Origin: Patescibacteria group bacterium
Lineage (GTDB): Bacteria; Patescibacteriota; Saccharimonadia; UBA4664
Assembly (NCBI GenBank): GCA_028288925.1
Contig: JAQGHG010000019.1
Span: forward strand, 72,047-136,046
Direction: 5' to 3'
DNA length: 64,000 nucleotides
Part shown: positions 8,744 through 58,325 of the stretch, piece by piece
Numbering within the stretch: the stretch's first letter is position 1
How the letters are laid out: the number at the start of each line of letters is the position of its first letter
The notes under the pieces: model-generated
Databases searched by the model: none
Told to the model about the DNA's origin: nothing
What the model saw: only the letters and a program-made list of their open reading frames with translations
Made by a program: the position numbers and the translations under genes

Positions 8744-8820
8744 TGGTGGATCCTAGAGGACTCGAACCTCTGACCCCCTCAACGTCAATGAGGTGCTCTA
8801 GCCAACTGAGCTAAGGATCC
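8744..8820 (-). tRNA. tRNA-Val (anticodon GAC)
   Basis: Hand-folded cloverleaf: GGATCCT acceptor, anticodon loop TTGACGT, TPsiC GGTTCGAGTCC, encoded CCA. Confidence 0.85.
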
Positions 8821-8932
8821 GGGCGTTACAAGTGCATAATATACTGCAATTCACCGTCAAAGGCAATGAGGGGCTTTTCTCTCTACTCAAAATAAGCTAT
8901 TATCTCCTGGTTAGACCCGCCCATTACACCAT

Positions 8933-9009
<77 letters not shown>

Positions 9010-10172: not shown

Positions 10173-10706
10173 ATGCCTCGCGTTAAACCCAAAAACGACA
10201 CCACTCTCCTAGCCTCGATGCCCGTCCGGCTGGCTGTTGCCACTTTGTCCCTCGGAGCCGTGGCTATCATCGCGGTCTGGGCGATCAATCAACCGCGTCA
10301 AGCCTCCGAGGCTCAGCTCTACCAGGACACGCTCAAGCAAGCCGCCGCCGCCGAACACGATCAAAACTTCTCCAGGGCCGCCGCCGTGTACCGCGACTAC
10401 CTCAAGACCGGCCACAGCCGTCCCCAAGACCATCAGCGAATTGTTTACATCCAGCTCGCCAGCGTGGAAGGCGAAGACCAGCATTATCAGGCCGCGATTA
10501 CGGCGCTGCGAGCCGCCGCCAAGCTACCCCCCGGCGAAGACCAGGCCATTATCCAAGGTCTTGCTAGCAACTATGATCTCGTGGGCGACAAGGCCAAAGC
10601 TATTACCTATTACAAGCTCGTTGTCGAGGATCTCAGAAAAAACCCCGCGCCCGGCAGTAGCTCCAAAGCCGACTCGCTGGAACTGCATATGAAGGACCTG
10701 CGATGA
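10173..10706 (+). CDS. membrane-anchored TPR-like helical repeat protein
   Basis: Start at MPRVKPK; N-terminal TM (VRLAVATLSLGAVAIIAVWAI) then helical repeats; stop overlaps ATG of downstream secreted-protein gene (ATGA). Confidence 0.5.
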   Translation: MPRVKPKNDTTLLASMPVRLAVATLSLGAVAIIAVWAINQPRQASEAQLYQDTLKQAAAAEHDQNFSRAAAVYRDYLKTGHSRPQDHQRIVYIQLASVEGEDQHYQAAITALRAAAKLPPGEDQAIIQGLASNYDLVGDKAKAITYYKLVVEDLRKNPAPGSSSKADSLELHMKDLR

Positions 10707-12637
10707 CCATGAAGCGTGTCGCCTTAACGTTATTCTCACTGGTAGCCGTCCTCGTGCCGCTCTTCGCCGCCAACCCAGCCTCCGCCGCGACCAAATCCAC
10801 CCACACCGATCCCGGCTATTTTCTACACCAAGTCGTCACCAACTGCGGCGGCAACGTCATCCAGGAAGGCTACGACGAATGGGGCCCGAGCCAAGGCCGC
10901 CAGCTGACCGCCGCCAAATTTATCAGCCTCACCCACGCCTACCTCCGCGATACCGGCAACGGCGGCCAAAACCAAGTCGGCGCCGCCTTCATCATAAACA
11001 CCATGCTCGGCGAACCCCAAAGCCGGTGGGGCGGCGCCAGCGGCCGCTCCCGGGGCATCAAAAACGCCTTCGACCGCGAAGAAGAATGGACATTGCTCGT
11101 GCGGGCCTACGACGCCAACGGCTGGGTCAACTGGGGCAACGCCGGCCATGTCTATAACGAGCCCGGCACCCACTACAAATCCACCCTCTGGCAAGGCAAC
11201 AACGACTGCGGCAGCGGCACCGCCTGGGTCCCCAGCAAGCCCAACGACGTCGCCGAGTTCCAATACTACTACGACCTCACCGGCCTCGAGCTCATCACCT
11301 TCTACAACCGCAACGGCACCCGCTACCGCATCGACCGCCACTGCGGCAACCCGCTCGGCAGCAACTCGCCGCTCCAAAACCCTTTCAGTGTCAGCCTTTC
11401 GGCCGACCACGGAGGTTCACCGACCATATTGGGCCAGGGCCAAACGTACAACCTCGCCGTCCACCTCCAAAACCACGGCCCCGGCAAATCCTTGCCCGGC
11501 CAACTCCAGGTAGAATGGCCCACCAGCAACATCTGCAAGCCCGGCGCCAGCTGCCCGCTGAACATGTCCGATCTCTCCAATGGCTACTCATCTTCCAAAG
11601 GCTTCTATAACGGCGTGGGCATATCCGACCCCATAGTGCCACCCAATCAACCAAACTGGCGCTGGGACACCAAATCTATCGCCAGTTCGGGCAAGACTAC
11701 CGCGAACGGGGTCCTCACCTTTACCACCCTGCCCAACGCCACTCCCGGAGCCACCATTACCTTTGTCGTCTTTTTCTATCCTAGGTCAGGATTCGAAAGC
11801 ACACCGCTCCGCGTCACGGTCACGTACAAAATCGACATCGTGCGTTACCCTGGTATCCATGGGCTCAGCGGCGATATCCATGCCGGAGGCGCCCTCTGCG
11901 GCCAAACCCCCGGCGCCCACAACATCATTAAGGGTAACGCGCAATCGCTTTCCTTCGGCGAGTTCCTGATATCGGCCAGCGGCCAAGTCTCAGGCGTTGG
12001 TTCCAATAATAGCTCCTCCGGCACCACCGCCACCCTTGGGGCCCACGGTAACTACAGCACGATCTGCCGGCCCGACCTAATAGCCGCCGCCAACCTCTAT
12101 ATCAACGCCAATCCTTCCAGCACTACCGACATCTCAGGGCTCACTGTTGATGTGTCTAGCCTGAATGAAGGTATCTATTACAGTAGGAGCGGGACCTTAA
12201 GGCTTAGCGGGACCTTCACCAAGAAGATAACCATCGTGGCCCTGGGCGGATCAGTCGTTATTACCAAGCCCATCATACTCAACGCGCCCAATGTCCCCCC
12301 CACCCAAGTACCCTCCATGGGCATCCTGGCCGCTAACGACATCAACATCAACGGCGCCGCCAACCGTGTGGACGCCTACCTCTTCTCTAATGGGACAATC
12401 AATACCTGCTCCGAGGGAAAAACCGCGCCCTGTATAAGTACTCTCGTCGTCAATGGTTTCATTATGGCCCATGCGCTGGTGTTTAACCGCCTCGGCCCCC
12501 TAACTGGACCAGCCGCGACTGTCGGCGAGCAAATCAATCTGACCGGCCAGCTCTACATCAACCCCCCTATGCTCTTAGATAACGCCAGCGCGATAAACCT
12601 CCTCGAAAGCCAAGGCGAAAAACCGCCCCTCCTGTAG
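10703..12637 (+). CDS. large secreted protein with conserved C-terminal domain shared with 60646..62901 product
   Basis: Signal peptide MTMKRVALTLFSLVAVLVPLFAANPASAAT; Gly/Asn/Ser/Thr-rich; C-terminal about 260 aa (from 11850) aligns with C-terminus of the pilus-locus secreted protein. Confidence 0.7.
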   Translation: MTMKRVALTLFSLVAVLVPLFAANPASAATKSTHTDPGYFLHQVVTNCGGNVIQEGYDEWGPSQGRQLTAAKFISLTHAYLRDTGNGGQNQVGAAFIINTMLGEPQSRWGGASGRSRGIKNAFDREEEWTLLVRAYDANGWVNWGNAGHVYNEPGTHYKSTLWQGNNDCGSGTAWVPSKPNDVAEFQYYYDLTGLELITFYNRNGTRYRIDRHCGNPLGSNSPLQNPFSVSLSADHGGSPTILGQGQTYNLAVHLQNHGPGKSLPGQLQVEWPTSNICKPGASCPLNMSDLSNGYSSSKGFYNGVGISDPIVPPNQPNWRWDTKSIASSGKTTANGVLTFTTLPNATPGATITFVVFFYPRSGFESTPLRVTVTYKIDIVRYPGIHGLSGDIHAGGALCGQTPGAHNIIKGNAQSLSFGEFLISASGQVSGVGSNNSSSGTTATLGAHGNYSTICRPDLIAAANLYINANPSSTTDISGLTVDVSSLNEGIYYSRSGTLRLSGTFTKKITIVALGGSVVITKPIILNAPNVPPTQVPSMGILAANDININGAANRVDAYLFSNGTINTCSEGKTAPCISTLVVNGFIMAHALVFNRLGPLTGPAATVGEQINLTGQLYINPPMLLDNASAINLLESQGEKPPLL

Positions 12638-12756
12638 GACACGCTCCACTCCAAAGAAACAGGGCCGGCATTCCGCTAATGCTTGCCGCCCACCCGCCAT
12701 ACACGGTAGGCTAGTAATTGAATTGTCCAAAGTACCAGCATAAGAGGTTTGGGAGC

Positions 12757-13893
12757 ATGTTAAGTCAGCAAATCGCCGACAAAATCCGGGCCAAAGTCAG
12801 TGCGCTGGTGAGCCAGGAGTTGCGCGTGACCGATCCGCAGGGTCAATCCTTGTCGCACACTTCTACGCTCAAAGCCGAAAGCGTCGAGATTGCTCAAGTT
12901 ACCTGGGCTATACCGTTTGCCTACGGTGGTAATACCGTGGGATACATCATCCTGGCCGAAGAAATGCCCAACCACGAGGAAATTGCTCCGCTCATCCGCT
13001 CCATCGCCGAGCTCGTAATGCACCAATCGCTCGTGCTAGAGCAAATCCCCCGCCAAGACGAGCGGCTCGACAAGTTTATCTACGATTTGCTCAACCAACC
13101 CCAACCCGAATGGTCGCTGCTCGCCGCCGAGGCCCGCCTCTTCGACATCGAGCTCGACCGACCGCGCATCGCCATCGTCATCCAAGTAGACGATCCAGCC
13201 CTCACCACCCGTTTCCAGGACCCTGCGGGCGACCGGGAGATCCGCCTCACCCGCTACAAGTTCGGCATCAACCGCGCACTCGACTCGTTCTACACCTCCA
13301 GCCGCGAAAACGTCGTGAGCTACCTGGGCGGTACCTCGTTTTGCATCCTCAAAGATCTCATCGGCACCGACGAAGTCGACCTCGGCACCCACCTCGACAA
13401 CTTCAAGAAGAGCCTGGGCGCCATCTACGGCATCCTCAAGAGCGAACTCAAGCTACCCACTACCGTCGGCGTCGGCAACTACCACTCGGGCCTCGAGGGG
13501 CTGCGCCAGAGCTACCACGAAGCCGTCTCGGCCATCGAGCTCGGCGGCCAGACCTGGGACCAGGACCGTATCTACCACATCGACGACTTCGGCGTGGTCG
13601 CACCTTTGCTTTCGGGCGTCGACGAATCCAACATTTACTTCTCCCGCGAGCTCCTGGAGCGCCTGGGCGAAAACCACGAGATCATCCAAACCCTCGAAGC
13701 CTTCTTCAACTTCGATATGAGCCTCACCCGCACCGCCGATATGCTCAAGATCCACCGTAACACCCTCGTTTACCGCCTCGACCGCATCACCGAGACGCTC
13801 GGGCTCGATCCGCGCAAGTTCGACGATGCCGTCCAGATCAAACTCGCCATCCTCTATAATCGGTTTGTGGAGCCCCATCATGCAGCTCAATAA
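12757..13893 (+). CDS. CdaR/PucR-family transcriptional regulator
   Basis: C-terminal HTH IHRNTLVYRLDRITETLGLDPRKFDDAVQIKLAIL matches PucR C-terminal HTH; start at MLSQQIAD. Confidence 0.7.
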   Translation: MLSQQIADKIRAKVSALVSQELRVTDPQGQSLSHTSTLKAESVEIAQVTWAIPFAYGGNTVGYIILAEEMPNHEEIAPLIRSIAELVMHQSLVLEQIPRQDERLDKFIYDLLNQPQPEWSLLAAEARLFDIELDRPRIAIVIQVDDPALTTRFQDPAGDREIRLTRYKFGINRALDSFYTSSRENVVSYLGGTSFCILKDLIGTDEVDLGTHLDNFKKSLGAIYGILKSELKLPTTVGVGNYHSGLEGLRQSYHEAVSAIELGGQTWDQDRIYHIDDFGVVAPLLSGVDESNIYFSRELLERLGENHEIIQTLEAFFNFDMSLTRTADMLKIHRNTLVYRLDRITETLGLDPRKFDDAVQIKLAILYNRFVEPHHAAQ

Positions 13894-15067
13894 CGCCCTC
13901 GCCAAACAGATAGCCGGCAAAGCCCACCAGGTGCTCAAACGCGACATCCTCATCGCCGACCTCTCCGGCCAACTCCTCGCCAGCCACGAGGGTCTCCGCC
14001 ATGGCTTCGTCACCGAGGCTCTGAGCGTCGCCCAAACCGGCCACTCGGTCTCGGCCGACTTCGAAGACCGCTCCACCAAATGGTGGCCCTTCATCTACGA
14101 AGAACAAACCATCGCGGTCTTCGGCCTGCCACTCGATTCCGGCCCCATCACCCAGGAAGCCATCACGCTTCTGCAGGGATTAGCCGAGGTCATCGTTTAT
14201 CAGCACTTCTTGCTCGACAAAATCCAGTCAGCCGAGCGCGTGCGCGCCGATTTCGTACAGCTCGCCCTCACCGCCCCTGCCGTCGACGCCGTCGACATCT
14301 ACCGCCAAGCCGACATTCTCCAGCTCAACCTCCGATCCTCCCAAGCCGTCATGCTCATTCACATCGACGGTCTGGAACGCGATGTGCGCCGGCGGCACGC
14401 CCACCTCTCCGCCGAAGAACAGCAGCTCCAGCTCGATGTCGTCACCGAATCCATCAATACTCACATCCGCGAAGTTTTCAAAAACTTCCAAGACAACCTG
14501 GTAGCCTATTTCGGCGACGACCGCTTCGTGCTCATCAAGGGCATCGGCGGCGACACGCTCACCACCCTCAACACCATCCGGTTCCTCACCGAAAAAGCCG
14601 AATTCGCTCTGGCCGCCGTCCAGAAACTCGATCTCGGACACACTGTCACCGTAGGCGTCGGCCAGTACTACCCCGATCTCGGCGGCCTGCGCAAGAGCTA
14701 CCAGGACGCCAAGCTCGCCCTCGAGGTCGGTTCCAAAGTCTGGGGCTTCGGGCGCGTCTTCCACATCAAGCAAGTCGGCATGTTCATCACCCTAGCCGGC
14801 ACCACCCAGGACCGCAAAGCCGAGCTGGCCCACCAGATCCTTTCTCCCCTCCTGCGCGATGAGCAGCTCTTCAAAACCGTCCAGGTCTTCCTCGCCAGCG
14901 GCCTCAATCTCACCGACGCCGCCGAAAGACTCCACATCCACCGCAACACCTTAATCTACCGGCTCGACAAGACCAAAAAGCTCATCGGCCTCGACCCACG
15001 GCACTTCGATGACGCCCTGCAGATCAAACTTGGGCTGATGTTCTATCAAGATCCCGCGGCGGTTTAG
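13880..15067 (+). CDS. CdaR/PucR-family transcriptional regulator (tandem paralog)
   Basis: C-terminal IHRNTLIYRLDKTKKLIGLDPRHFDDALQIKLGLM; N-terminal MQLNNALAKQIAGKAHQ parallels upstream paralog; start ATG overlaps upstream stop by 14 nt. Confidence 0.7.
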   Translation: MQLNNALAKQIAGKAHQVLKRDILIADLSGQLLASHEGLRHGFVTEALSVAQTGHSVSADFEDRSTKWWPFIYEEQTIAVFGLPLDSGPITQEAITLLQGLAEVIVYQHFLLDKIQSAERVRADFVQLALTAPAVDAVDIYRQADILQLNLRSSQAVMLIHIDGLERDVRRRHAHLSAEEQQLQLDVVTESINTHIREVFKNFQDNLVAYFGDDRFVLIKGIGGDTLTTLNTIRFLTEKAEFALAAVQKLDLGHTVTVGVGQYYPDLGGLRKSYQDAKLALEVGSKVWGFGRVFHIKQVGMFITLAGTTQDRKAELAHQILSPLLRDEQLFKTVQVFLASGLNLTDAAERLHIHRNTLIYRLDKTKKLIGLDPRHFDDALQIKLGLMFYQDPAAV

Positions 15068-47552: not shown

Positions 47553-48479
47553 ATGGCCGAACTACACCTATCCGAACTTGTCACCGACTTCCTAGAGCAC
47601 CTGGAGATCGAACAGAACCGCTCGCAGAAGACAATCTCCAACTACGACCACTACCTCCAGCGGCTCGTCGAATTTTCCGATGATTGCGACATCGCCAAAC
47701 TCGACGCCGAGATGGTCCGCCAATGGCGCTTGCATCTCAACCGCCTGCGCGACAACCAAGGCCAAGAGCTCACCAAGACCACCCAAAATTATCACCTCAT
47801 CGCTCTGCGCAGTTTCCTCAGGTACCTCGCCAAACGCGACATCAAGGCGCTCGACAGTGCCAAGATCGAGCTCGCCAAGGTCGTGCGGCCGCAGGTGACC
47901 TTCCTGGAGACCGGCGAGGTCGAGCGGCTGCTCGGCGCCATCGACACTAGCAACCCCGCCGGTCTGCGCGACCGCGCCGTGGTCGAGCTGCTCTTCAGCG
48001 GCGGCCTGCGCGTGTCCGAGCTCGCCGGCCTCAACCGCGACCAGCTCAATCTCGAACGCCGCGAGTTTATGGTGCGCGGCAAGGGCCAGAAAGACCGCCC
48101 CATCTTCATCTCCGACCAAGCCGCCGGCTGGATCGGCCGCTACCTAGACACGCGCGAAGACACCGGCCGGCCGCTCTTCATCCACTACTCCGGCTCCCAA
48201 AACGACGACGAAGGCGGCATGTACCAGCGCCTCACCGTGCGCAGCGTACAACGGCTCGTCAAGCGCTACGCCAAGGCCGCCGGCATCATCAAGGACGTCA
48301 CGCCGCACACCCTGCGCCATAGCTTCGCCACCGACCTGCTCGTAAATGGCGCCGACCTACGCAGCGTCCAGGGCCTCCTCGGCCACGCCAACATCGCCAC
48401 CACCCAGATCTACACCCACATCACCGACCCCCAGCTCAAATCCGTCCACGACCGCTTCCACCGCAAGAACGAGTCCTAA
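47553..48479 (+). CDS. tyrosine site-specific recombinase, XerC/XerD family
   Basis: N-terminal core-binding LEHLEIEQNRSQKTISNYDHYLQRL; catalytic R...HxxR...Y (LRHSFATDLL...TQIYTHI). Confidence 0.8.
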   Translation: MAELHLSELVTDFLEHLEIEQNRSQKTISNYDHYLQRLVEFSDDCDIAKLDAEMVRQWRLHLNRLRDNQGQELTKTTQNYHLIALRSFLRYLAKRDIKALDSAKIELAKVVRPQVTFLETGEVERLLGAIDTSNPAGLRDRAVVELLFSGGLRVSELAGLNRDQLNLERREFMVRGKGQKDRPIFISDQAAGWIGRYLDTREDTGRPLFIHYSGSQNDDEGGMYQRLTVRSVQRLVKRYAKAAGIIKDVTPHTLRHSFATDLLVNGADLRSVQGLLGHANIATTQIYTHITDPQLKSVHDRFHRKNES

Positions 48480-48586: not shown

Positions 48587-48913
48587 CTGAAACAAAGCCC
48601 CACACCCTTACCCAAGGATCCTTACTACAAGCAAATTGCGCCCATCTTAAAAGCGCTGGGCCATCCTATTCGCCTCGAAATCGCCTATACCCTTACGGTA
48701 GACGGCGAGTGCACCGCCGGTGCTCTTGCCGAAGCCCTAGAATATCCCGCAGCCATCATTTCAAAACACCTTACGATCCTACGCCAAGCCGAAATCATCA
48801 GCCTCACAGTCAAGCACCCCTACCACACCTATCGCCTGACCAACCCCTGGGCAAAAAACCTGCTCAAGGCAAATATGGACAACCCGTACTCGTCGAATCG
48901 ATCAACCCGTTAA
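48587..48913 (+). CDS. ArsR-family HTH regulator lacking canonical start codon (CTG start or 5'-degraded)
   Basis: Own translation: LKQSPTPLPKDPYYKQIAPILKALGHPIRLEIAYTLTVDGECTAGALAEALEYPAAIISKHLTILRQAEIIS...; AAAGGAAAGG 7 nt upstream of CTG; no ATG/GTG/TTG in frame; 3' end overlaps pilX-like gene by 50 nt. Confidence 0.4.
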   Translation: MKQSPTPLPKDPYYKQIAPILKALGHPIRLEIAYTLTVDGECTAGALAEALEYPAAIISKHLTILRQAEIISLTVKHPYHTYRLTNPWAKNLLKANMDNPYSSNRSTR

Positions 48914-49922
48914 TCACCCCGAAGTTCTTGCACACATCCTGGTCACTAAAGATCACGTAATCCAAGCCGCTAGCAGCCCCGTTCTTGTACGGCACCTTGT
49001 ACACCACCCGGCGGAATACATCGCCGGCTTTGGCAGTAATATCGATCGTCGCCGTGCCATCCGGCACATTCACCACCGTTCCGTTACCGTTCAGCCCCGA
49101 CATAAACGTCAGCCTATAATCCGTACCCGCATACCGGCTGCGCAGCCGCAGGATAAAGTTCCGCGTATTCGCGTCCATATTCGTAATAGTCAGCTTGCAG
49201 TGATACGAACCCGCTCCGGGGTTACACACCCCTCCCACGGGATTCGCGCCCGCTGCCCCTAGGCCAGCCGGCTTGATCGCGGCAAAGCTCACGGTCCCAG
49301 GGCCACTCGTACGAGGCACCACCAGAGCATTACGCAAGTTGATCGTACCGGCCGCGCTAGCACTAAACGATCCCCTCTGATAATCCACGATCGCCGCCTC
49401 TATCGCCGCCGCGTGATTCCAAGTGCCGCTCGTCGGAAAACCACCGGTGACATTAAAGAAGTTAGCCGCGTATCCACCGGACGGCCGCGGCGTGAGGTCC
49501 CATTCCAAAATCATGCTCCGGAAGGTAGCTGTCGTGCCCAGATCCACCTGCACAGCCTTGTCCGGTATCGGCAGACTCCCCGAGGGCGAACCCGAGTATG
49601 TAATCTGTTGGCAGGTCCAGCCCACCGAGTTGGGGTGAGTCGGATCTAGATCCAAGTTCTGGTAAGTGCTAGGCGCACCGGTACAAGTATGCCCGTTCAA
49701 CGTCCCAGCCGCCAAGTCCGAAAGCACCTTGTCCAGCCCGGCCTCCACACCCGATTGCGCCGCGTAGTACGCCCGCATCGACTGCTCAGAGTCGTTGGAT
49801 TGCCGCAGCTCACTGATCATGAGCGTTATCAGCCCAGTGGTAATAATCGCCAATAAAATACTAATAATAATCGTGGTCAACAGCGCCACCGCCCCCTGCT
49901 CTTCCCTCTGCCAGCGTCTCAT
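48864..49922 (-). CDS. PilX-like minor pilin / pilus tip-associated protein
   Basis: N-terminal hydrophobic helix GAVALLTTIIISILLAIITTGLITL followed by MISELRQS...AYYAAQSG typical of PilX N-domain. Confidence 0.65.
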   Translation of the reverse strand: MRRWQREEQGAVALLTTIIISILLAIITTGLITLMISELRQSNDSEQSMRAYYAAQSGVEAGLDKVLSDLAAGTLNGHTCTGAPSTYQNLDLDPTHPNSVGWTCQQITYSGSPSGSLPIPDKAVQVDLGTTATFRSMILEWDLTPRPSGGYAANFFNVTGGFPTSGTWNHAAAIEAAIVDYQRGSFSASAAGTINLRNALVVPRTSGPGTVSFAAIKPAGLGAAGANPVGGVCNPGAGSYHCKLTITNMDANTRNFILRLRSRYAGTDYRLTFMSGLNGNGTVVNVPDGTATIDITAKAGDVFRRVVYKVPYKNGAASGLDYVIFSDQDVCKNFGVINGLIDSTSTGCPYLP

Positions 49923-50503
49923 AATCCATCTCCTCCCCTTAAGCTAGCCGTACTCGACAAGGTCGTCACCGCGCAAAACTGCGAACCCGCTCCCGGCAAA
50001 CAGTGCGTTTGCGCCAAGTCCAGGGCATTAAGGTTGTTCCGCGAAGCCAACGTCAACGTCACCATCACCGTCCCAAGCCCCGTCTGCACCGGTGTGGTCG
50101 CGGCGGCCGCGAACTGCGTCACCTTCACCATCGGATCATTCAGCTTACGCCAGCCGACGCCAAACAACGGCACCGGGCAACTCCCCGGAGGACTAATTAG
50201 CATGCCCACCTGCAGATTGCCCGTGGCATCCACCGCGTATTCCAGCGTCTGACTGCCGCGCGTCAAACACAGCCGCTGCAAGGGAGCCGTAGCCACCACC
50301 GTCGCCGTCGCCGACTGGCGGATGTCCTTGCTCACGGCGTCGATCAGCAAGCGCGAATTCTGCTGCGTCGTCCGCGACGCGATACCTGCCTGGTGAATCC
50401 GCACCACCTGGATAAACCCAGCCGACACAATCATCATCATGAAGCTAAACACCGCCATCGCCATCAGCAATTCCACCATCGTAAAACCTTGCTCGCGTCT
50501 CAT
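49919..50503 (-). CDS. prepilin-type minor pilin (PilW-like)
   Basis: Class III signal QGFTMVELLMAMAV. Confidence 0.7.
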   Translation of the reverse strand: MRREQGFTMVELLMAMAVFSFMMMIVSAGFIQVVRIHQAGIASRTTQQNSRLLIDAVSKDIRQSATATVVATAPLQRLCLTRGSQTLEYAVDATGNLQVGMLISPPGSCPVPLFGVGWRKLNDPMVKVTQFAAAATTPVQTGLGTVMVTLTLASRNNLNALDLAQTHCLPGAGSQFCAVTTLSSTASLRGGDGL

Positions 50504-51048
50504 CGGCGCAACCTATCAAGATTCACCAACTGCAACCAGAGCGTATTCCTCAAATCCGGGCCACCACCCCGGGCCGGCACACCGTACACAATGGTAAAGT
50601 TGTAGCCGGTGCCCGTCACCAACGGCGCCGCCGAAATCCACATATAGCTCAATCCACCCGCCACCAGCGTGTCATTCCCGACGCCCGCTACCGGCACCCA
50701 TTGATCAGCGCCATTTACCGTCTGGCGCGCCATGTGAAAGCACGTCTGCAACCCCGCCTGAGACGCGTCACAATCGCCCGATCCATTTTGCACATTTATA
50801 CCCGGAATGCTGTTCACCGGCCGGCCCGCTACAAATTCGCTCCACTTGTAGCTATCCCGAAAGCTCTGCAACGCTTCGGCCTGCTGCTGTGCGTCCGAGG
50901 TCAGCTGACTGCGTTCCTTAGCATCCTGGCCCAACGAAAACGCCTTGTTGGCGGTCGTAAACGCTCCCGTCAACACCAATGCCAAGATCGCCAAGGCCAT
51001 CGTGACCTCTACCAGCGTATCGCCGCGTTCACTTCGCAACCATCTCAT
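50500..51048 (-). CDS. prepilin-type minor pilin (PilV-like, degenerate G-D-T-L-V-E)
   Basis: RGDTLVEVTMALAILALVL N-terminus. Confidence 0.6.
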   Translation of the reverse strand: MRWLRSERGDTLVEVTMALAILALVLTGAFTTANKAFSLGQDAKERSQLTSDAQQQAEALQSFRDSYKWSEFVAGRPVNSIPGINVQNGSGDCDASQAGLQTCFHMARQTVNGADQWVPVAGVGNDTLVAGGLSYMWISAAPLVTGTGYNFTIVYGVPARGGGPDLRNTLWLQLVNLDRLRR

Positions 51049-51710
51049 GGGAATACCCTCGTTACGCCGTTATTCGCGGGATCGATCGTCAGATATGCCT
51101 TACGCGGCGGAGACGAAGGGTCCTGAAAGTTCAAACTCTTCGCTACACCGTTGGGCAGAAAGTCATCATAGCGGTACACATTGGCACTCAAGACAGTAAA
51201 ACCACCCGTGCCACTCACCGCCGTCTGAAGCGTACCGTCGGTCGCCGAACGCACAAACGCCACCTGTACCTTGCCGGCGTTTACCGCGCCCACCGGCGGC
51301 CCGGTAACCTGCCAGCTCTTGTACGTCAAACCCCAAGGAATCGTAAACGAAGTCGTCTCACCCGCCACCACAGTCACCTGCTGCGCCGACGCTGGCGCGG
51401 AATTATTAGCCGTGGAGAGCGTCTCTACCTGGACTATCCCCGACCCGACATTAAACGTCAGCAATTTTCCAAACGTCACGCGCGTAATATCGGACCCGCC
51501 CGAAAGCTTCACGGTCGTCAGAGCCTCGGTGCGCTTGGACAGCACCGTCTCCTTGAGCCGCTCCACCGAGTCGCTAAACTGAGCCTGTCCCCGCAAGCTC
51601 GAGAAACCCGTCAGCGCCGCCGCCGCCAGCGCCGCTGAGATCGCCATCACCATGATGACTTCGATCAGGGTAAATCCAGCTGTTCCGTGTTTAGACATAA
51701 GTACTTTCAA
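51045..51710 (-). CDS. prepilin-type pseudopilin (FimT/GspH-like)
   Basis: AGFTLIEVIMVMAISAALAAAAL. Confidence 0.7.
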   Translation of the reverse strand: MKVLMSKHGTAGFTLIEVIMVMAISAALAAAALTGFSSLRGQAQFSDSVERLKETVLSKRTEALTTVKLSGGSDITRVTFGKLLTFNVGSGIVQVETLSTANNSAPASAQQVTVVAGETTSFTIPWGLTYKSWQVTGPPVGAVNAGKVQVAFVRSATDGTLQTAVSGTGGFTVLSANVYRYDDFLPNGVAKSLNFQDPSSPPRKAYLTIDPANNGVTRVFP

Positions 51711-51743
51711 TATAGCACACGCATCGGCTCACGGCCGTCGCGC

Positions 51744-52547
51744 CTACAACCCATTGAGCCGCAAATACCATGCCACGATCTGTTGCCCAAACAAAAACGC
51801 CACCACCGTACTCCCTACCAGATAGGGGCCAAACGCCATCTGGTCCTTACGCTTCTTGCGATGCGATATTATCAAAATCACCGCTACCAGGGCCGCCACG
51901 TCAAACGCGATAAATAAAGCCACCAATAAGCCCTTGATGCCCAAAATCAGGCCCATCAAAAAGCCCAGTTTGATATCACCGCCGCCCATCCCGCGGCCCT
52001 TCGTAGCCGCCACCAGCACATAAAACGCCGTGCCCAAGCCCAGCGCCGCCAAGAGCGGCCCGCGCATCATCAGCGGATGGTGCGTCAGCACCGCCTGCGC
52101 CACCACATACACCAGCGCTAGCACGATAGCCGGCACCATCACCTTGTCCGGCAGCAACATCCAGCGCGCGTCATACACCGCCAACACGATCAGCATCGTC
52201 AATATCACCAGCCACAGTCCAAACAGTACCCCCGTCACCACGGTCACCGGCGCCAGCCACCAGGCGCTCAAGCCAAACAAGCCGGCTGTCACCAGCTCCA
52301 CGATCGGGCTGTCCTGAATCGGCGCTTTGCAATACCGGCACTTACCGCCCAAGGCCAGCCATGATACCACCGGCACCAAATCCTTCGCTGCCAGCTGGTG
52401 CTTGCACTCCGGACACATACTGCGGCCCTTCACCCAACTACGGCCCACGTACAGCCGCCACACGATCGCATTCACCGCCGAGCCAATCATCAGGCCCAGC
52501 AAACTTACCAAAATTACCGTCATCCAAAGCATAAGCAGATTATACAC
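51744..52547 (-). CDS. pilD: prepilin peptidase/N-methyltransferase (A24 family)
   Basis: N-terminal CPEC...CRYC zinc site, catalytic Asp pair in DARWMLLPD and GGGDIKL. Confidence 0.85.
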   Translation of the reverse strand: MYNLLMLWMTVILVSLLGLMIGSAVNAIVWRLYVGRSWVKGRSMCPECKHQLAAKDLVPVVSWLALGGKCRYCKAPIQDSPIVELVTAGLFGLSAWWLAPVTVVTGVLFGLWLVILTMLIVLAVYDARWMLLPDKVMVPAIVLALVYVVAQAVLTHHPLMMRGPLLAALGLGTAFYVLVAATKGRGMGGGDIKLGFLMGLILGIKGLLVALFIAFDVAALVAVILIISHRKKRKDQMAFGPYLVGSTVVAFLFGQQIVAWYLRLNGL

Positions 52548-52592
52548 AAAAACGGCCCCCGAAGGGGCCGTTTTTACAAAACCAGGCGGTGG

Positions 52593-53030
52593 TTATTGGT
52601 TAGTTCGACAAGCCTGACCACCCTGTTCAAGACCCACGCACACCGTGTACGTCCGAGCACCAGACAGAGTGTAGCTTAAACCACCAGGCGAACCCGTACC
52701 CGTCGTAAATGTCAGAGGGCCAGCAGGAGTCGCTGAACCATAAGCATCACCGGTCTGTGGGTCTAAGAAATTAGCCGCGGGAAGATAGGTTTGCAACGCG
52801 GCACCCGCGACTGCAGCGCTGGCCGGGTAGGTACCATTGGTATTAGAAGCATAGTTTTCTAATGCAGCCGCAATCCGGCCAATATCATTCTTCCGTTGCG
52901 TATCCCGCCGGCTCTTCTGCGCGCCTGACACAGCCAGGAATACGATTACCATCAAGAGCCCGGCAATCGCCAATACAAGTACAATTTCTATGAGCGTGAA
53001 GCCCTTTTCTTTTTTGAGGAGATTACTCAC
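52593..53030 (-). CDS. pilA: type IV major pilin
   Basis: Leader MSNLLKKEKG then FTLIEIVLVLAIAGLL; 145 aa, C-terminal Cys. Confidence 0.8.
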   Translation of the reverse strand: MSNLLKKEKGFTLIEIVLVLAIAGLLMVIVFLAVSGAQKSRRDTQRKNDIGRIAAALENYASNTNGTYPASAAVAGAALQTYLPAANFLDPQTGDAYGSATPAGPLTFTTGTGSPGGLSYTLSGARTYTVCVGLEQGGQACRTNQ

Positions 53031-53118
53031 CGTCTATCTCACCTTTCATTAATTTGCTGCTAATAATGACAACTTACTTCTAATATTGCGCTTATGCTCC
53101 CCCGAAGTCAATCCGCAA

Positions 53119-54345
53119 CTACTTGAGGTTGTCGACCCCGCCCGAGCCCACCAGCGAGTATACCGGCAGCAAGATAGCCGCGATTACACCACCCACTACT
53201 ACGCCCATCACTACCATCAGCAACGGCTCGATCGTCGTCGAGAGGTTCTTCACCTCTTCATCCACTTCGTTTTCATAGTAACCGGCCACGCGGTCCAGCA
53301 TCGAGTCGATCGCGCCGGACTGCTCGCCGATCTTGACCATCTGCGGCACCAGCCGCAGGAACGTATCTTGGTTCTCCAGCGTAGACGAGAGTGCTTTGCC
53401 ACCCTTCACACTGCTCATCGAGTGCTCAATCGTCTTGGCCACATGCACGTTGTTGATCGAGTTCGTCACGATCCGCAGTGCCTCCAGCATCGGGATACCG
53501 CTCGCCAGTAGGGTCCCCAGGGTCCGGCTAAACCGCGCCATGTACACCTTGCGGAAAATCTTCCCAAACAACGGCACGTTCAGCTTGAAGCTATCAATCG
53601 CCGACCGTCCGCCCTCCGTCTTGAGCCACGCGCGGCCCGCCATAGTCAGCCCGCCCAACGCGATCGCCGTCAGCCACCAAAAGTGCAAAATAAAGTTCGA
53701 CGCGGCGATCATAATGGTGGTCAAAAATGGCAGGTCCTTGTGTAAGTCCTTGTACAGCGCGCCCACCTGCGGCAGCACCGTGGTAAGCATAAAGATCAGT
53801 ACACCGAAGATCACCAACAGCACGATCACCGGGTACACCATCGCGCCCCGGATCTTGGCCAAGATGGCCGCGTCCTTCTCCTGCTGGCTGGCGATCCGCT
53901 CCAACGCCTTGTCGAGCGAGCCGGAAGCCTCACCGGCCGCCACCAGCGACACGTAGATGTTGTTGAATACCTCCGGATGCGCCGCGAACGCCTGGCTCAG
54001 GCTCGTGCCGGATTCCACGGTCGTCACGATCGTCCCCACCACCGCCGCCAGATTCTTGTTGGTAATCTGCTCCTGCACCGTCCGCAGCGACTGGGTCAGC
54101 GGCAAGCCGGCGTTGATCAGAGTCGAGAGCTGCCGCGTAAAGATTACCCGGTCCTTGGCGCCTACGCCCTTACCTAGGCCGGATTTGGCCAGTAGCCCCG
54201 AAGATTCCTTGCTTTCGATCGAAATCGGAAACAAACCCTGGCTCATCAGCAACTTGGCCGCCGCCTGCTCATTCTCAGCCTGTACATCAGCCTTTACCGT
54301 CTCGCCGGAATCAGTCTTGTGCGCCGTGTAAGTAAAAGTCTGCAT
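53119..54345 (-). CDS. pilC: type IV pilus inner-membrane platform protein (GspF family)
   Basis: Two T2SF repeats, 408 aa, 3 TM. Confidence 0.85.
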   Translation of the reverse strand: MQTFTYTAHKTDSGETVKADVQAENEQAAAKLLMSQGLFPISIESKESSGLLAKSGLGKGVGAKDRVIFTRQLSTLINAGLPLTQSLRTVQEQITNKNLAAVVGTIVTTVESGTSLSQAFAAHPEVFNNIYVSLVAAGEASGSLDKALERIASQQEKDAAILAKIRGAMVYPVIVLLVIFGVLIFMLTTVLPQVGALYKDLHKDLPFLTTIMIAASNFILHFWWLTAIALGGLTMAGRAWLKTEGGRSAIDSFKLNVPLFGKIFRKVYMARFSRTLGTLLASGIPMLEALRIVTNSINNVHVAKTIEHSMSSVKGGKALSSTLENQDTFLRLVPQMVKIGEQSGAIDSMLDRVAGYYENEVDEEVKNLSTTIEPLLMVVMGVVVGGVIAAILLPVYSLVGSGGVDNLK

Positions 54346-54348
54346 AAC

Positions 54349-55419
54349 CTACCCGCGCATTAAGCGCTCTAGCTCCTGCAAATCTACCGCGAAATTTTTG
54401 GCCTCATCGTATGTGATCTTACCGGCTTGGATCTCTTGCACCAACGTGCGGTCCATACTCTGCATGCCGTACTCGCCGCCGGTCTGGATGGCCGCGTCGA
54501 GCTGGTGTGTCTTACCCTCACGGATAATGTTGCGTACCGCCCCTGTAGCTACCAAGATCTCCGTCACTACCGCCCGGCCGCCGCCGATGGCCGGCACCAG
54601 CCGCTGGCTCACGATGCCCTGAAGCATACCCGCCAGCTGCACCCGGATCTGCTGCTGTTGGTGCGGCGGGAATACGTCGATCATGCGGTCGATACTCTGC
54701 GCCGCGCTGTTGGTGTGCAGCGTCGCCAGCACCAAGTGGCCCGTCTCCGCGATGGTCACGGCCGCCGCGATCGTCTCTAGGTCGCGCATCTCACCGATCA
54801 GCACCACGTCCGGGTCCTGCCGCAAGCTCGACCGCAGCGCCGCCGCGAACGAGTAGGTGTCGTAGTGAATCTCGCGCTGTACCACGATCGACTTCTTGGA
54901 ATTGTGCGCGTACTCGATGGGGTCTTCGATCGTCAGAATGTGGCAGGCCCGGTTGGTGTTGATCGAATCCACCATCGCCGCCAGCGTAGTGCTCTTACCC
55001 GAACCCGTCGGGCCCGTTACTAGTACCAAACCCCGTGGAAATTTGGTGAAATCAGTCAGGATCTTGGGCATCTTCAGCTCTTCCAACGTCCGAATCTGAG
55101 CTGGGATCAACCGCAGCGCCGCCGCCAAGTTCCCGCGTTCATGGAAGGCATTTACGCGAAACCGGCCATAATTTCCGAAAGCAAACGAGAAGTCGACTTC
55201 CTTGTCTTTCAACAAAATTTCTTTTTGGTCATCGTCTAGAATCGAGAACGTCAGCCGCTCCACATCCCCCGCGTCCAGCGGAGCCATATCTTCGATCGGC
55301 TTAAGCTTACCGTCCACCCGCAGCATCGGCGCCAATCCTACCTGGATATGCAGGTCCGAAGCATCAAACCGGATCACTTGCTCCAGCAGTAGCTCAATCT
55401 TTAACGCACTTTTTTCCAC
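54349..55419 (-). CDS. pilT: type IV pilus retraction ATPase
   Basis: GLVLVTGPTGSGKSTT Walker A, Asp box, His box (ATLHTNSAAQSIDR), 356 aa. Confidence 0.85.
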   Translation of the reverse strand: MEKSALKIELLLEQVIRFDASDLHIQVGLAPMLRVDGKLKPIEDMAPLDAGDVERLTFSILDDDQKEILLKDKEVDFSFAFGNYGRFRVNAFHERGNLAAALRLIPAQIRTLEELKMPKILTDFTKFPRGLVLVTGPTGSGKSTTLAAMVDSINTNRACHILTIEDPIEYAHNSKKSIVVQREIHYDTYSFAAALRSSLRQDPDVVLIGEMRDLETIAAAVTIAETGHLVLATLHTNSAAQSIDRMIDVFPPHQQQQIRVQLAGMLQGIVSQRLVPAIGGGRAVVTEILVATGAVRNIIREGKTHQLDAAIQTGGEYGMQSMDRTLVQEIQAGKITYDEAKNFAVDLQELERLMRG

Positions 55420-55496
55420 AAAATCACCTCAAGAGTTATCCCTATTAAAGCACAAGGGGTATGGGGATGTACACTGTATGTCCTTTTAATCCCGTG

Positions 55497-56210
55497 TCAT
55501 TTTCCATACCGCTCGGCGCTATAGGCCTCTCCGCGCTCGATCAAAGGCCAATACGGCGCGAAGCGCTCCTCCCAAAACCGGCGCCCAATAGCAAAGCCCA
55601 GACGTTCAAATTCACCCTCACGCGGTTTTTCGCCCTCAGCCAGCCGCCGCACATCAAACTGCGTCTGGTGGCAGGCCATAGCCGCGAAGCGCTTCCGCCG
55701 CACTTGGTCGTCGCTCGGATACCAAAGACCACCCTCGGCGGGGCCAAAAAGCTCCGCCACCAGCCCCCAAACCTCCACCGCCACGCCCGCATCAACCGCC
55801 GCCCAGGCGGCCTCATGAACCGCCTGGTGATCCGGGTGACCATCAAAGCCCTTCGGCCCGGCCGTAAAGATCCGGCCAATCGCATGCCGCTCCACAACCT
55901 GCCCGATCAGTTCGGCCAAAGCCGGCACATGCCCGGCCAGCTCGCCATCCGGAAACCGCGAAGCCGCCAAGCCGAAGCCGTCCGGATACAGCTGGCGCTC
56001 GCGCGGCAGGCCCAGCTCCCGCAATCCCCGCTCCGACTCCCGCCGCCGCAGCCCGGCCAAGCGCTCACCCGGAGTATAGCCCTTCACGGTGCCGGCCCCA
56101 CTATCGGTCACGATCAGCGCGAAACAGCCGGGCTCACCCAGCACCAGAGCCGGATGCATCCCTTCCGGATCATCACAGTGCGCACCGATAATCAGCGAGC
56201 GCATAGGCAC
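55497..56210 (-). CDS. PIG-L/LmbE-family N-acetylglucosaminyl deacetylase
   Basis: IIGAHCDDPEG (AHPDDE-like) and GHPDHQAVH motifs; embedded between pilB and pilT on same strand. Confidence 0.7.
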   Translation of the reverse strand: MPMRSLIIGAHCDDPEGMHPALVLGEPGCFALIVTDSGAGTVKGYTPGERLAGLRRRESERGLRELGLPRERQLYPDGFGLAASRFPDGELAGHVPALAELIGQVVERHAIGRIFTAGPKGFDGHPDHQAVHEAAWAAVDAGVAVEVWGLVAELFGPAEGGLWYPSDDQVRRKRFAAMACHQTQFDVRRLAEGEKPREGEFERLGFAIGRRFWEERFAPYWPLIERGEAYSAERYGK

Positions 56211-56220
56211 TCCTTCGTTC

Positions 56221-57996
56221 CTAATAATCTGCCGCCACCCGCGCTACTTCTTCGAGCGTCGTGAAGCCATTGAGCACTTTTAGATAGCCGTCTTGCTTCA
56301 TCGTCAGCATGCCGTCGGCCGTCGCCTGGTTTTGGATTTCGCTCGTGGTAGCGTGCCGCAACAATAATTTCTCCATATGCTCGGTCATGGAAAATACTTC
56401 GTAAATCCCAATCCGGCCCTTATAGCCCTTCACGCATTTGCTGCAACCCTTGGCCACATAGATCGGAAACTCCGGCAGATCCGCCAAAGGTAGTTCCTCA
56501 TAGCCCAAATCCTTCTTGGCCTTCTCCATCTCTTCCTTGGCCTTCGGCAATACCGCTCCCAGCGTAGCAATGATCGACTTTGTCTCGCTCTCGCCGCTCT
56601 TGGCCTGCACCTTGCAGTGCTCGCAAAGCTTACGCACCAGCCGCTGGCCAATCACCGTGTTGATTGTACTAGCGATCAAAAACGGCTCGATGCCCATATC
56701 CAGCATACGCGGGAGCACCCCGGCCCCCGAGTTGGTGTGCAGCGTGCTCAGCACCACGTGTCCCGTCAGCGCCGCCTGGATAGCCAAATCCGCCGTCTCT
56801 TTGTCCCGGATCTCCCCTACCAGCACAATATTTGGGTCCTGCCGCAGTATACTGCGCAATCCGCTGGCAAACGTCAGCCCCACATCCGTGTTGATCTGAA
56901 TCTGATTAATCCCGTCCATCTTGTACTCTACGGGGTCTTCGAGCGTCACGATGTTTACCGACACATCCTTGAGCTCCTGCACGATCGCGTACAACGTGGT
57001 GCTCTTACCCGAGCCGGTCGGGCCGGTACTAAGCGTCATGCCGTGCGGCTTATGAATACCATCGGCGATCACCCGCAGCGACCGCCCCCGGAAGCCCAGC
57101 GCGTCCAGGGTGAGGATGCTCGAGTCCTTGTCCAGCAACCGGATCACCACCTGCTCACCCCACACCACGGGCGAGATCGCGATACGCAGGTCAATCTCGT
57201 TGTTCTCGGAGCTAATCTGAAACTGCCCGTCCTGCGGTACCCGGTGTTCATCAATCCGCAAGTTCGCCAAAATCTTAATGCGCGAAATCAGCGCCGGCTC
57301 AATACTCTTGGGCAGCGTCATAGTCTCCTGCAAGATGCCGTCGATCCGGTAGCGAATCTTCAGCTCCTTCTCGCGCGGCTCGATGTGAATATCGGAAGCG
57401 TGGCTCTGCGCCGCGTAGTCCAAAATCGCGTTCAATGCACGGGTAATCGGCGCGTCCTGCACCAAATTCTGCAAATCCTTGGGGCTCTTCGTCTCTGCCT
57501 GCGGATGATCGTCCACCCGCTCCACATCCATCGCGGCCGAGAGGTCCGCCGCCACATCGCTGCGAAACTCCGCCAAAATATGGTCGATCGACGCCCGCGA
57601 AGCCAAATACACCGTGACGGTATGCCCCATCTTGCGGCTCAAGAAGTCCACCGCCTGAATGTTCGTCGGGTCGAGCATGCCCACCGCCAACCGGCCCTGC
57701 TGCATACCGAACGGCACGGCCATATACGTCTCGGCCATCTCCCGCGGCAACATCCGGGTAATGTCTTCCGGCGCGCTAATCTGCGTCAAGTTTACATACG
57801 GGAAACCCATAGCCTTGGCCGAAATCCGCGTCAAATCCTCCTCGCCTACCAAGTTTTTCTCGGCGATATAGGCAATAAGAGGCTTCGACTCCTTTAAGGC
57901 GTCGACTTTTGCTACTTCCAGCTGAGCTTTATCGAGCAGCTTGTTAGTGAGCAGCAGTTCTTCAATTTTATGCTGACTCTCAACGGAGAGCATCAA
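56221..57996 (-). CDS. pilB: type IV pilus assembly ATPase (GspE family) with N-terminal GSPII_E_N domain and Cys4 zinc site
   Basis: Walker A TGPTGSGKSTTL, CEHC...CSKC tetracysteine, 591 aa. Confidence 0.85.
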   Translation of the reverse strand: MMLSVESQHKIEELLLTNKLLDKAQLEVAKVDALKESKPLIAYIAEKNLVGEEDLTRISAKAMGFPYVNLTQISAPEDITRMLPREMAETYMAVPFGMQQGRLAVGMLDPTNIQAVDFLSRKMGHTVTVYLASRASIDHILAEFRSDVAADLSAAMDVERVDDHPQAETKSPKDLQNLVQDAPITRALNAILDYAAQSHASDIHIEPREKELKIRYRIDGILQETMTLPKSIEPALISRIKILANLRIDEHRVPQDGQFQISSENNEIDLRIAISPVVWGEQVVIRLLDKDSSILTLDALGFRGRSLRVIADGIHKPHGMTLSTGPTGSGKSTTLYAIVQELKDVSVNIVTLEDPVEYKMDGINQIQINTDVGLTFASGLRSILRQDPNIVLVGEIRDKETADLAIQAALTGHVVLSTLHTNSGAGVLPRMLDMGIEPFLIASTINTVIGQRLVRKLCEHCKVQAKSGESETKSIIATLGAVLPKAKEEMEKAKKDLGYEELPLADLPEFPIYVAKGCSKCVKGYKGRIGIYEVFSMTEHMEKLLLRHATTSEIQNQATADGMLTMKQDGYLKVLNGFTTLEEVARVAADY

Positions 57997-58070
57997 TCAC
58001 CTCCTCTGCGGAGCGGGAAGGAGCGAGCCCCGACGAAGCTATACACCGTCCGCTCATATCGTACCTCCCC

Positions 58071-58325
58071 TTATTGACCGAAGGGCGCGGGGTTATTCAA
58101 GCCGGTCGTCAGATCCAGCGACACCCCAAAATCCCGCACCTTACTACCGTCAGTTACCTTCGCCAGAGCAGCGCTATCAAAATTCTCACTTACCACGCCC
58201 ACCACTTCTACCTGGGGAATCGCCGCTTTCTTATTCTGCGGTACCAGCTGGGTGTAACCTAAATATCCCGCTACCAGCAAAATACCCACCGCCAGCAGCA
58301 TATACATGATGTCTTTGCTCTTCAT
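58071..58325 (-). CDS. small single-TM pilus-locus protein
   Basis: 84 aa, one TM (YMLLAVGILLVAGYL); located between pilO and pilB. Confidence 0.5.
   Translation of the reverse strand: MKSKDIMYMLLAVGILLVAGYLGYTQLVPQNKKAAIPQVEVVGVVSENFDSAALAKVTDGSKVRDFGVSLDLTTGLNNPAPFGQ

Follow-up and report, generated by a model that had tools for sequence, protein, structure and literature searches.

A conserved C-terminal beta-solenoid module defines a family of exported proteins linked to type IV pilus loci in Candidatus Saccharimonadia: a candidate family of pilus-linked adhesins

Two exported proteins with a common C-terminal module

The window, that is, the whole 64-kb stretch of DNA analyzed here, carries two large genes, p1 (10703..12637, + strand, 644 aa) and p2 (60646..62901, - strand, 751 aa from the ATG). 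The original prediction had delimited both correctly, and had described their products as secreted proteins that share roughly 270 C-terminal residues but have unrelated N-terminal regions; our results bear this description out. Sec signal peptides are visible in both sequences and, as had been noted, no known anchor is present: neither protein has an LPXTG or other sorting motif, an SLH, LysM or CWB domain (Pfam, NCBIfam) or a transmembrane (TM) segment at the C-terminus. The p1 sequence is identical to the NCBI entry 'MAG: hypothetical protein JWN01_957 [Patescibacteria group bacterium]'.

In the AF2 model of p1 (mean pLDDT 81.5), the signal peptide (aa 1-28, ..ASA|A) is followed by an alpha+beta head (aa ~30-238; 10790..11416, +), in which four helices and a five-stranded sheet carry invariant Tyr and Asp residues and a C-x-N-x-x-G motif, and by an Ig-like domain (aa ~240-378). 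The C-terminal half consists of a beta-solenoid module (aa ~380-628; 11867..12586, +), with conserved cysteines at positions 455, 569 and 577, and a C-terminal tail (12587..12634, +) ending ..NLLESQGEKPPLL-COOH, which is near-invariant in sequence and modeled with low confidence (pLDDT <50 for aa 629-640). The module is predicted to fold as a right-handed triangular beta-solenoid with a flanking alpha-helix (aa 459-469), of the ice-binding-protein (IBP-1)/ComZ type, in agreement with the earlier guess of a beta-helix. Foldseek against the PDB returned matches to the Ig-like domain only. In p2, the signal peptide precedes a head of a different class (aa ~40-350), an Ig-like/DUF11-like domain (aa ~354-465) and, by comparison with the p1 sequence, the module and tail (aa 479-751; 61467..60649, -).

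BLASTP aligns p1 242-643 with p2 354-750 at 43% identity (E 7e-87). The module begins at SGDIHAGG in p1 (aa 389, nt 11867) and at SGDVHAGG in p2 (aa 479, nt 61467) and extends to the last residue, over 256 aa and 273 aa, respectively, p1 ending in GEKPPLL and p2 in GERPPLN; the DNA limits first proposed for it were approximately right, being off by only about 20 nt. Identical residues occupy 142 of 274 alignment columns (52%), and the global alignment scores 671, whereas shuffled sequence scores -32 ± 18 (z = 38). The blocks ICRPDL, KITIV, VPSMGI, VDAYLFSNGTINTC and INLTGQLY, quoted in the original prediction as identical, were all located in both modules with their positions in register. The module is rich in G, S, L, A and N, and also in T, but the match is positional and is not confined to low-complexity stretches. 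The two heads are not related to each other (z = -0.1 for the local score), and a weaker similarity covers the ~140 aa upstream of the module, reaching into the Ig-like domain (DUF11-like, E 0.022 in p2). No third copy was found in the window by tblastn.

Neither p1, p2 nor 98 relatives gave a Pfam, NCBIfam or PDB sequence match for the module (Pfam hmmscan at E<=1 for p1 and p2, and at E<=0.01 or 0.001 for the relatives), and a profile search of PDB sequences likewise returned no match. The fold is thus of a known type, but it comes without a sequence-family match or a known function. Together, these findings support the module as a genuine, conserved and uncharacterized domain that marks out a secreted protein family specific to the lineage.

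The family, its anchor partners and the pilus locus

The size of the family became visible only by a full HMMER profile search, which retrieved 801 cluster representatives at E<=1e-10, all belonging to an unnamed family; word-index homologue searches had given only 4, 2 and 3 matches. In a genome scan queried with a 6-sequence alignment, all loci that name a lineage belong to Candidatus Saccharimonadia or Patescibacteria, in line with the original suggestion that the module marks a family of surface proteins in this lineage. A metagenome scan with the distant 'GERPPLY' subgroup gave no matches. The module is invariably the last part of the protein, and the near-invariant tail motif G-E-[RK]-x-P-L-[FYN]-COOH forms the exact C-terminus in 137 representatives. 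As to the variable head on a conserved tail that had been proposed, the conserved end with differing heads fits, but the heads are not freely variable: they fall into recurrent classes, the majority class A, to which p1 belongs, in 52 of 104 representatives, and the minority class B of p2 in 14. No fold relative is known for the majority class. Some heads contain PA14, CARDB or Ig-like domains, and hmmscan of the 98 relatives detected no enzyme domains in them. Tandem duplicates of the family gene occur at two loci (L005 and L008), and the window itself has two copies. At two further loci (L011 and L012), the last ~40 residues, including the tail, are carried by a separate secreted protein, which indicates that the tail can exist as a unit apart from the rest. 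We rejected the explanation that a mobile insertion or an intron splits the gene at these loci, given that the three ORFs there are distinct and that each has a signal or TM segment of its own.

All 25 family genes with enough upstream sequence are preceded by a gene for a small 'MPxV-basic-TM' anchor protein or, once (L013), are fused to one. The two genes are usually translationally coupled, the partner gene at other loci ending about 4 nt inside the family gene, and the partner usually has 2-3 TPR repeats. In the window, the partner of p1 (10173..10706, +, 177 aa) probably starts at 10173 (MPRVKPK...), judging from its sequence; it has a basic N-terminus lacking a lipobox cysteine, one TM helix and an extracytoplasmic TPR-like domain (TPR_14, 23.8 bits vs a cutoff of 23.5), and its stop codon overlaps the p1 start (ATGA), so that the coupling described earlier is real. 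TPR matches were obtained for 10 of 10 partners tested from other loci, most with at least one above the cutoff. The original prediction had named such a partner for p1; p2 also has one, overlooked at the time, in a 52-aa ORF (62904..63062, -) that reads as MPQVVQPAKSHK followed by a TM segment and 17 aa, with AAGGTGA 8 nt upstream and its stop 2 nt ahead of the p2 ATG. These two are the only MP[QRKHL][VI]+TM ORFs in the window, and each directly precedes p1 or p2. The TPR part is optional, since it is missing from the 52-aa partner and is replaced by a beta-rich domain at L008, L011 and L012. On BLAST evidence, we reject the idea that the class B heads arose by fusion with the TPR partner; where fusion occurs, as at L013, it involves the MPxV-TM anchor alone.

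Downstream of p1 lie two PucR/CdaR-type regulators (12718..13893 and 13826..15067, +; PF13556, PF17853 and PF05651, i.e. HTH_30, GGDEF_2 and Diacid_rec). The regulators of the regulatory unit formerly assigned to p1 are therefore real, but no PucR match accompanies the family gene at any other of the 39 loci. We reject them as part of the family unit and regard the pairing as a local accident, because it is not kept elsewhere.

Downstream of p2, a type IVa pilus operon (48864..60580, -) was recognized from Pfam matches (T2SSE, T2SSF, Peptidase_A24, N_methyl, PIG-L) and translations. It comprises, all on the - strand, pilM (59543..60580), pilN (58959..59543), pilO (58325..58969), a small 84-aa gene (58071..58325), pilB (56221..57996), a PIG-L-family gene (55497..56210), pilT (54349..55419), pilC (53119..54345), the major pilin gene (52593..53030), pilD (51744..52547), three minor pilin genes (51045..51710, 50500..51048 and 49919..50503) and a gene for a PilX/GspK-like 352-aa protein (48864..49922). 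Pfam revealed no secretin domain among the pil-locus ORFs scanned. The pilB-pilT gap is a variable slot, occupied by the PIG-L gene in the window and by different DNA (1-3.4 kb) at other loci.

The p2 gene lies 65 nt upstream of pilM, and the interval that separates its stop from pilM contains no terminator-like site; promoter and terminator scans gave matches at chance level and were uninformative. The original prediction that one copy heads the pilus locus extends well beyond the window: in 27 of 39 related loci (12 of 14 from genomes and 15 of 25 from metagenomes) the family gene is directly upstream of pilM. These 27 loci, from divergent genomes, keep the pil gene order of the window, the same strand and short intergenic gaps. 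The remaining 12 copies, including p1, are not beside pil genes. Across loci, PilM identity is 65-92% and module identity only 35-62%. In S. epibionticum, pilM comes immediately after ychF, the family gene being absent, and the pilus locus is functional and essential (PMC10633639 supplement); this, together with the duplicates and the presence of two copies, points to an accessory nature of the family.

Candidate function and alternative readings

Candidatus Saccharimonadia are Patescibacteria and monoderm episymbionts, and type IV pili are essential for the episymbiotic lifestyle of Saccharibacteria and Patescibacteria. The family bears on how these bacteria recognize their bacterial hosts and keep hold of them. 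The known work on their pili, to our knowledge, stops at pilins, and we found no name for the solenoid family in the literature examined. A large exported family linked to the pilus operon, with a presumed conserved docking end and differing heads, has the architecture expected of host-specificity adhesins. We therefore put it forward as a candidate pilus-linked adhesin family of episymbiotic bacteria.

The reading that we favor, tentatively, is that p1 and p2 are paralogues within a previously undescribed family of accessory adhesins of type IVa pili, exported but not themselves pilins, in which solenoid and tail would dock to the pilus machine in the manner of PilY1/MshQ. The head, at times with PA14, CARDB or Ig-like domains, would be the exposed, target-binding end. 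After export, the soluble protein would be held at the membrane by the small anchor protein, as a monoderm lacks an outer membrane that could keep it in place. The pilus priming complex may then capture the free C-terminal peptide, which would most likely add a beta-strand to the GspK/PilX-like minor pilin (48864..49922), and the protein would ride the pilus tip as an adhesin, as for PilC/PilY1 and predicted MshQ; paralogues with different heads could confer alternative tip specificities. In favor of this reading are the synteny with pilM, the anchor partner in 25 of 25 cases, the size of the family with its fixed C-terminal module, its accessory nature, the adhesin-type domains in some heads and the lack of enzyme domains, and the precedent of PilC/PilY1. 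An invariant and always terminal tail that is modeled with low confidence in the monomer is the signature of a docking peptide. Several observations count against this reading. The gene is beside pilM, at the operon end opposite the minor pilins, whereas pilY1 and mshQ are beside theirs; an obligate membrane anchor would suit a protein that remains on the cell just as well; the one or two prolines of the tail are not ideal for a long beta-strand; and 12 of 39 copies are away from pil genes.

A bolder version of this proposal, which we consider doubtful, is that the MPxV-TM mini-protein and the solenoid protein form a new split 'pseudo-pilin', a tip or priming unit of monoderm Patescibacteria that would replace PilY1 and set which host the pilus grabs. 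The anchor helix would act as the pilin N-terminal helix or as a hand-over tether, and the last solenoid rung with the terminal peptide would be a docking element complementable in trans, as suggested by the loci with a separate tail protein.

Only slightly less plausible than the favored reading is a cell-tethered adhesin, or a stationary accessory of the machine, that stays on the cell throughout. The MPxV-TM partner or fused anchor would hold the solenoid-and-tail base at the membrane, with the head and the Ig-like domain reaching out across the wall, and cooperation with the pilus would be only sequential, retraction pulling the epibiont to its host before the adhesin locks on; in a variant, the protein would surround the site where the pilus exits, as a collar or guide. 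The obligate anchor, fused in one case, and the proximity to the alignment genes pilMNO instead of the minor pilins are consistent with tethering, as is the fact that TPR domains commonly bind C-terminal peptides, the tail being a conserved free C-terminus. Yet the tail stays invariant where the TPR part is missing (the p2 partner, L008, L011 and L012), so that its target must be another conserved component, and binding of the tail by the TPR domain was downgraded as a sole mechanism. A core collar is in turn unlikely because the S. epibionticum pilus locus works in the absence of the family gene.

It seems unlikely that the family consists of surface or secreted proteins mechanistically unlinked to pili, the ychF-pilM junction being a tolerated insertion site for an inherited, lineage-specific cassette. 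In favor of this notion, at least one further position in the pil locus varies (pilB-pilT), a third of the copies lie elsewhere in the genome, and the fold resembles that of ice-binding proteins, which have no pilus connection. The solenoid could then serve, for example, to bind polysaccharide or ice-like surfaces. However, random cargo would vary between lineages, whereas the same family holds the same position and strand with short gaps in 27 loci of divergent genomes. Finally, an artefact of low complexity or chance, to which the abundance of G, S, N and T in the module might have pointed, is refuted by the in-register blocks, the z score and hundreds of homologues, and membership in a characterized sequence family, with p1, p2 and 98 relatives all lacking matches, has practically no probability.

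Comparison with known systems

The module shares with DUF3494/IBP-1 ice-binding proteins (e.g. 3wp9, 7bwx and 6bg8) the right-handed triangular solenoid and the flanking helix. It differs from them in lacking a match to their family model (hmmscan at the thresholds above) and in possessing, at its N-terminus, an additional conserved cap (GD[IV]HAGG), as well as cysteines that are conserved and the terminal peptide; there is no reason to expect ice binding. A triangular IBP-like solenoid is also found in the tip pilins ComZ of Thermus thermophilus and PilX of cyanobacteria. There, however, it is a distal insert in a pilin fold with a prepilin N-terminus, whereas here it is the conserved C-terminal end; p1 and p2 have ordinary signal peptides, the N_methyl prepilin motif occurs only in the pilins of the pil locus, and the p1 model has no pilin domain.

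As with the TPR pilotins PilF, Tgl and PilW, the partner is a small TPR protein of the pilus locus, with a large exported protein as its presumed client. In contrast to these, its anchor is not a lipid but a TM helix at the N-terminus, where the sequence starts with a conserved MPxV, there is no secretin client, and its TPR part is dispensable in some cassettes. The family supplies a short defined motif, GE[RK]xPL[FY]-COOH, and an obligate anchor partner of 50-180 aa, which may show how a bacterium devoid of an outer membrane loads a non-pilin onto its pilus.

A close parallel is PilC/PilY1, in which a conserved peptide at the extreme C-terminus docks to a PilK/GspK-like minor pilin, the last ~10 residues complementing PilK-family pilins as a strand, and is required for assembly and tip retention (PMC12918778). 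The conserved domain is a beta-propeller in those proteins and a beta-solenoid here, with no PF05567 match in p1 or p2 (E<=1); the family gene differs, too, in lying beside pilM with an obligate small membrane-anchor partner, in a monoderm host without secretin. Like PilC/PilY1 and predicted MshQ, however, the family comprises large Sec-exported non-pilins of a pilus locus with a variable N-terminal and a conserved C-terminal part. As in PilC/PilY1, there are paralogues within a genome and, at the level of sequence, a near-invariant peptide at the extreme C-terminus, which by analogy would serve for docking.

A C-terminal module common to two exported proteins

Two ORFs, one of 644 aa at 10703..12637 on the forward strand (p1) and one of 751 aa at 60646..62901 on the reverse strand (p2), had been predicted to share a C-terminal module behind unrelated N-terminal heads, and both stand as described. 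Residues 242-643 of p1 align with residues 354-750 of p2 at 43% identity (BLASTP, E 7e-87). The strongly conserved segment, running from SGDIHAGG in p1 (nt 11867) and SGDVHAGG in p2 (nt 61467) to the final residue (256 and 273 aa, respectively), is 52% identical, with a global score 38 standard deviations over shuffled sequence. The alignment score of the two heads is not above shuffles, and tblastn found no third module copy in the window. From these four observations, the p1/p2 similarity is real and positional; confinement to low-complexity G/S/N/T stretches is ruled out by the shuffle-tested alignment. Lower-identity similarity reaches ~140 aa further upstream, into an Ig-like domain, where p2 shows a weak DUF11 match.

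Neither protein has a match in Pfam, NCBIfam or PDB sequences, which speaks against the module being a characterised domain family. A word-indexed search recovered four relatives only. A full HMMER profile search of the module against 1.84 billion cluster representatives returned 2945 proteins at E<=1e-3, 801 at E<=1e-10 and 142 at E<=1e-30, extending the predicted family to hundreds of homologues; p1 (P0006) and p2 (P0005) are both exact entries in the match list, and the NCBI record of p1 is a hypothetical protein from a Patescibacteria MAG. Nearly all members are 600-1000 aa long and have the module as their very C-terminal part; their N-termini are signal peptides, in agreement with the Sec export originally proposed.

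The p1 head class is common to 52 of 104 full-length representatives and the p2 class to 14. Paralogues do carry different heads, as anticipated, but these belong to recurrent classes and do not vary freely. In 98 relatives scanned against Pfam, the only domains to appear, each occasionally, were DUF11, CARDB, PA14 and Ig-like ones; no enzyme domain was among them. One match (P0001, locus L018), encoded on a 1.4 kb contig, has a pirin-like N-terminus ahead of the module, which looks like a gene-calling run-through and not a real fusion. In the full-length AlphaFold model of p1 (100 homologues; mean pLDDT 81.5, pTM 0.69), the module, at pLDDT 90-98, is modelled as a beta-solenoid of the IBP-1 fold, in line with the beta-helix first guessed.

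Terminal peptide and membrane-anchor partner

In the 137 representatives whose C-terminus is complete, the final heptapeptide reads G(126) E(136) [RK] x P(136) L(125) [F72/Y40/N15], and the protein ends exactly there without exception. This stretch has pLDDT below 50 in the p1 model. Being highly conserved, at a constant distance from the free carboxylate and without fixed structure in the monomer, the heptapeptide is a candidate docking peptide. In two loci (L011, 7406-11101; L012, 8915-12444) the module is split between two secreted proteins flanking an MPQV-TM protein: the first stops directly after ...RGPLN (profile position ~226), and the last carries only the final ~40 residues of the module (final strand, NPP, GERPPLY). 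The split form is recurrent, since eleven database representatives end at the same point as the first protein. The tail segment is thus a detachable unit, which a second protein can provide in trans.

The gene preceding p1 overlaps its start (ATGA) and probably begins at 10173 (MPRVKPKNDTT...). Its product has a basic N-terminus followed by a single TM helix and a TPR-like domain, which confirms the coupled membrane-anchored gene proposed earlier. In other loci, ~170-aa homologues with an MPQV, MPRV or MPKV start end ~4 nt inside the family gene, and 10/10 of those tested have TPR matches. Directly upstream of p2 lies a 52-aa ORF (62904..63062, reverse strand) composed of MPQVVQPAKSHK, a TM segment and 17 residues, with an MPQV start, basic residues, a Shine-Dalgarno-like AAGGTGA and a stop 2 nt before the p2 ATG; it is too short for annotation by length. 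Only two MP[QRKHL][VI]+TM ORF starts occur in the 64-kb window, each before a family gene. Across all loci, every family gene with 600 nt or more of sequence upstream (25/25) has the anchor gene (18 by motif, 7 more by HMM); in L013 and several representatives the large protein itself carries the MPxV-TM segment as a fusion. The TPR domain is an optional component: the p2 partner lacks it, and in L008, L011 and L012 a beta-rich domain takes its place. Conservation of the cytoplasmic MPxV start suggests that it takes part in a specific interaction or acts as a sorting signal.

Genomic setting of the family

Between p2 and pilM, the next gene downstream, there are 65 nt and no terminator-like site. 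The operon continues, on the reverse strand throughout, with pilM, pilN, pilO, a small gene, pilB, a PIG-L-family gene, pilT, pilC, the major pilin, pilD, three minor pilins and a PilX/GspK-like 352-aa protein; no secretin gene was found in it. The PIG-L-family gene (GlcNAc-PI de-N-acetylase-like; 55497..56210, reverse strand) occupies a pilB-pilT slot that ranges from almost nothing to 3.4 kb in related loci and, given this variability, looks like a cargo position inside the operon.

A pattern scan in which each GTDB species was represented by one genome gave 14 loci, 12 titled Candidatus Saccharimonadia, Saccharimonadales or Saccharibacteria, one "Patescibacteria group bacterium" and one "uncultured bacterium"; a JGI metagenome scan added 25. 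The family gene stands directly 5' of pilM-pilN-pilO-small-pilB in 12/14 genome and 15/25 metagenome loci, so that co-occurrence with pil genes is seen at 27 of these loci. In the same loci PilM is 65-92% identical to that of the window, the module only 35-62%. Either head class may adjoin pilM, and L005 and L008 carry two partner-plus-family-gene cassettes in tandem.

In S. epibionticum the pilus locus is essential; its last genes encode a GspK-like pilin and a recombinase, as in the window, and ychF (SEML1_0103) is directly followed by pilM (SEML1_0104), with no family gene (PMC10633639 supplement). Because the same locus frame exists there minus the family gene, the family is accessory and not a core part of the pilus machine. 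In the window, a XerC-like tyrosine recombinase (47553..48479, forward strand) adjoins the last pilus gene (48864..49922, reverse strand), matching SEML1_0116/0117; by this shared arrangement, distant Saccharibacteria conserve the frame ychF...xerC. In the window, the gene before the p2 cassette belongs to the LCP family (63119..63994) and is not ychF.

Two tandem PucR/CdaR-type regulator paralogues follow p1 (12718..15067, forward strand); their ORFs overlap by ~68 nt as listed, and the second probably starts further downstream. Their assignment to a p1 regulatory unit does not hold, as no PucR gene lies near a family member in any other of the 14 genome and 25 metagenome loci. Two divergent tRNA-Val genes with GAC and CAC anticodons (8744..9009), 112 nt apart, immediately precede the hydrolase/p1 region.

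Possible docking at the pilus and comparison with known systems

The data show that the protein is exported and has several domains, among them a conserved solenoid, and a conserved terminal peptide; that a small membrane anchor is its obligate partner; that its gene has a conserved place heading a retractile T4aP operon; and that its distribution is accessory, with paralogues. We tentatively favor PilC/PilY1-like pilus docking, in which the conserved C-terminal end would dock and the head would bind targets. Once exported from a monoderm, a soluble protein would be lost by diffusion. The anchor may tether the family protein at the membrane until the priming complex captures its tail, which would explain the obligate partner. 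Somewhat more doubtful is a lasting tether to the cell, with the protein acting there as an adhesin or an accessory of the machine; this accounts equally well for the anchor partner and the pilM adjacency, but gives no account of the invariant tail where the TPR domain is lost. That the gene merely hitch-hikes at a permissive site is unlikely, being hard to reconcile with 27 loci carrying the same family in the same place.

For pilus docking, PilC/PilY1 appears the best-fitting precedent: its last ~10 residues strand-complement a PilK/GspK-like minor pilin and are needed for assembly and tip retention, and MshQ is predicted to dock likewise (PMC12918778). In its proposed mode of action the family comes closest to PilY1, PilC and MshQ, but their defining propeller is missing from it. 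ComZ and PilX have the solenoid fold in common with the family, which lacks their pilin domain. In this regard, the ComZ solenoid has been described as IBP-like and its tip location argued (PMC6561018), and the same solenoid is reported in all cyanobacterial PilX tip pilins, for which a PilY1-like "plug" role has been proposed (preprint, 10.64898/2026.02.12.705559). IBP-1 itself shares the fold, but the family has no DUF3494 sequence match. The Saccharibacteria pilus literature consulted for comparison does not mention the family, of which three elements are undescribed: the GE+xPL[FY] peptide at the C-terminus, the MPxV-TM partner that serves as anchor, and a head whose fold has no known relative. 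Set against these systems, the family is best called a non-pilin pilus accessory or adhesin.
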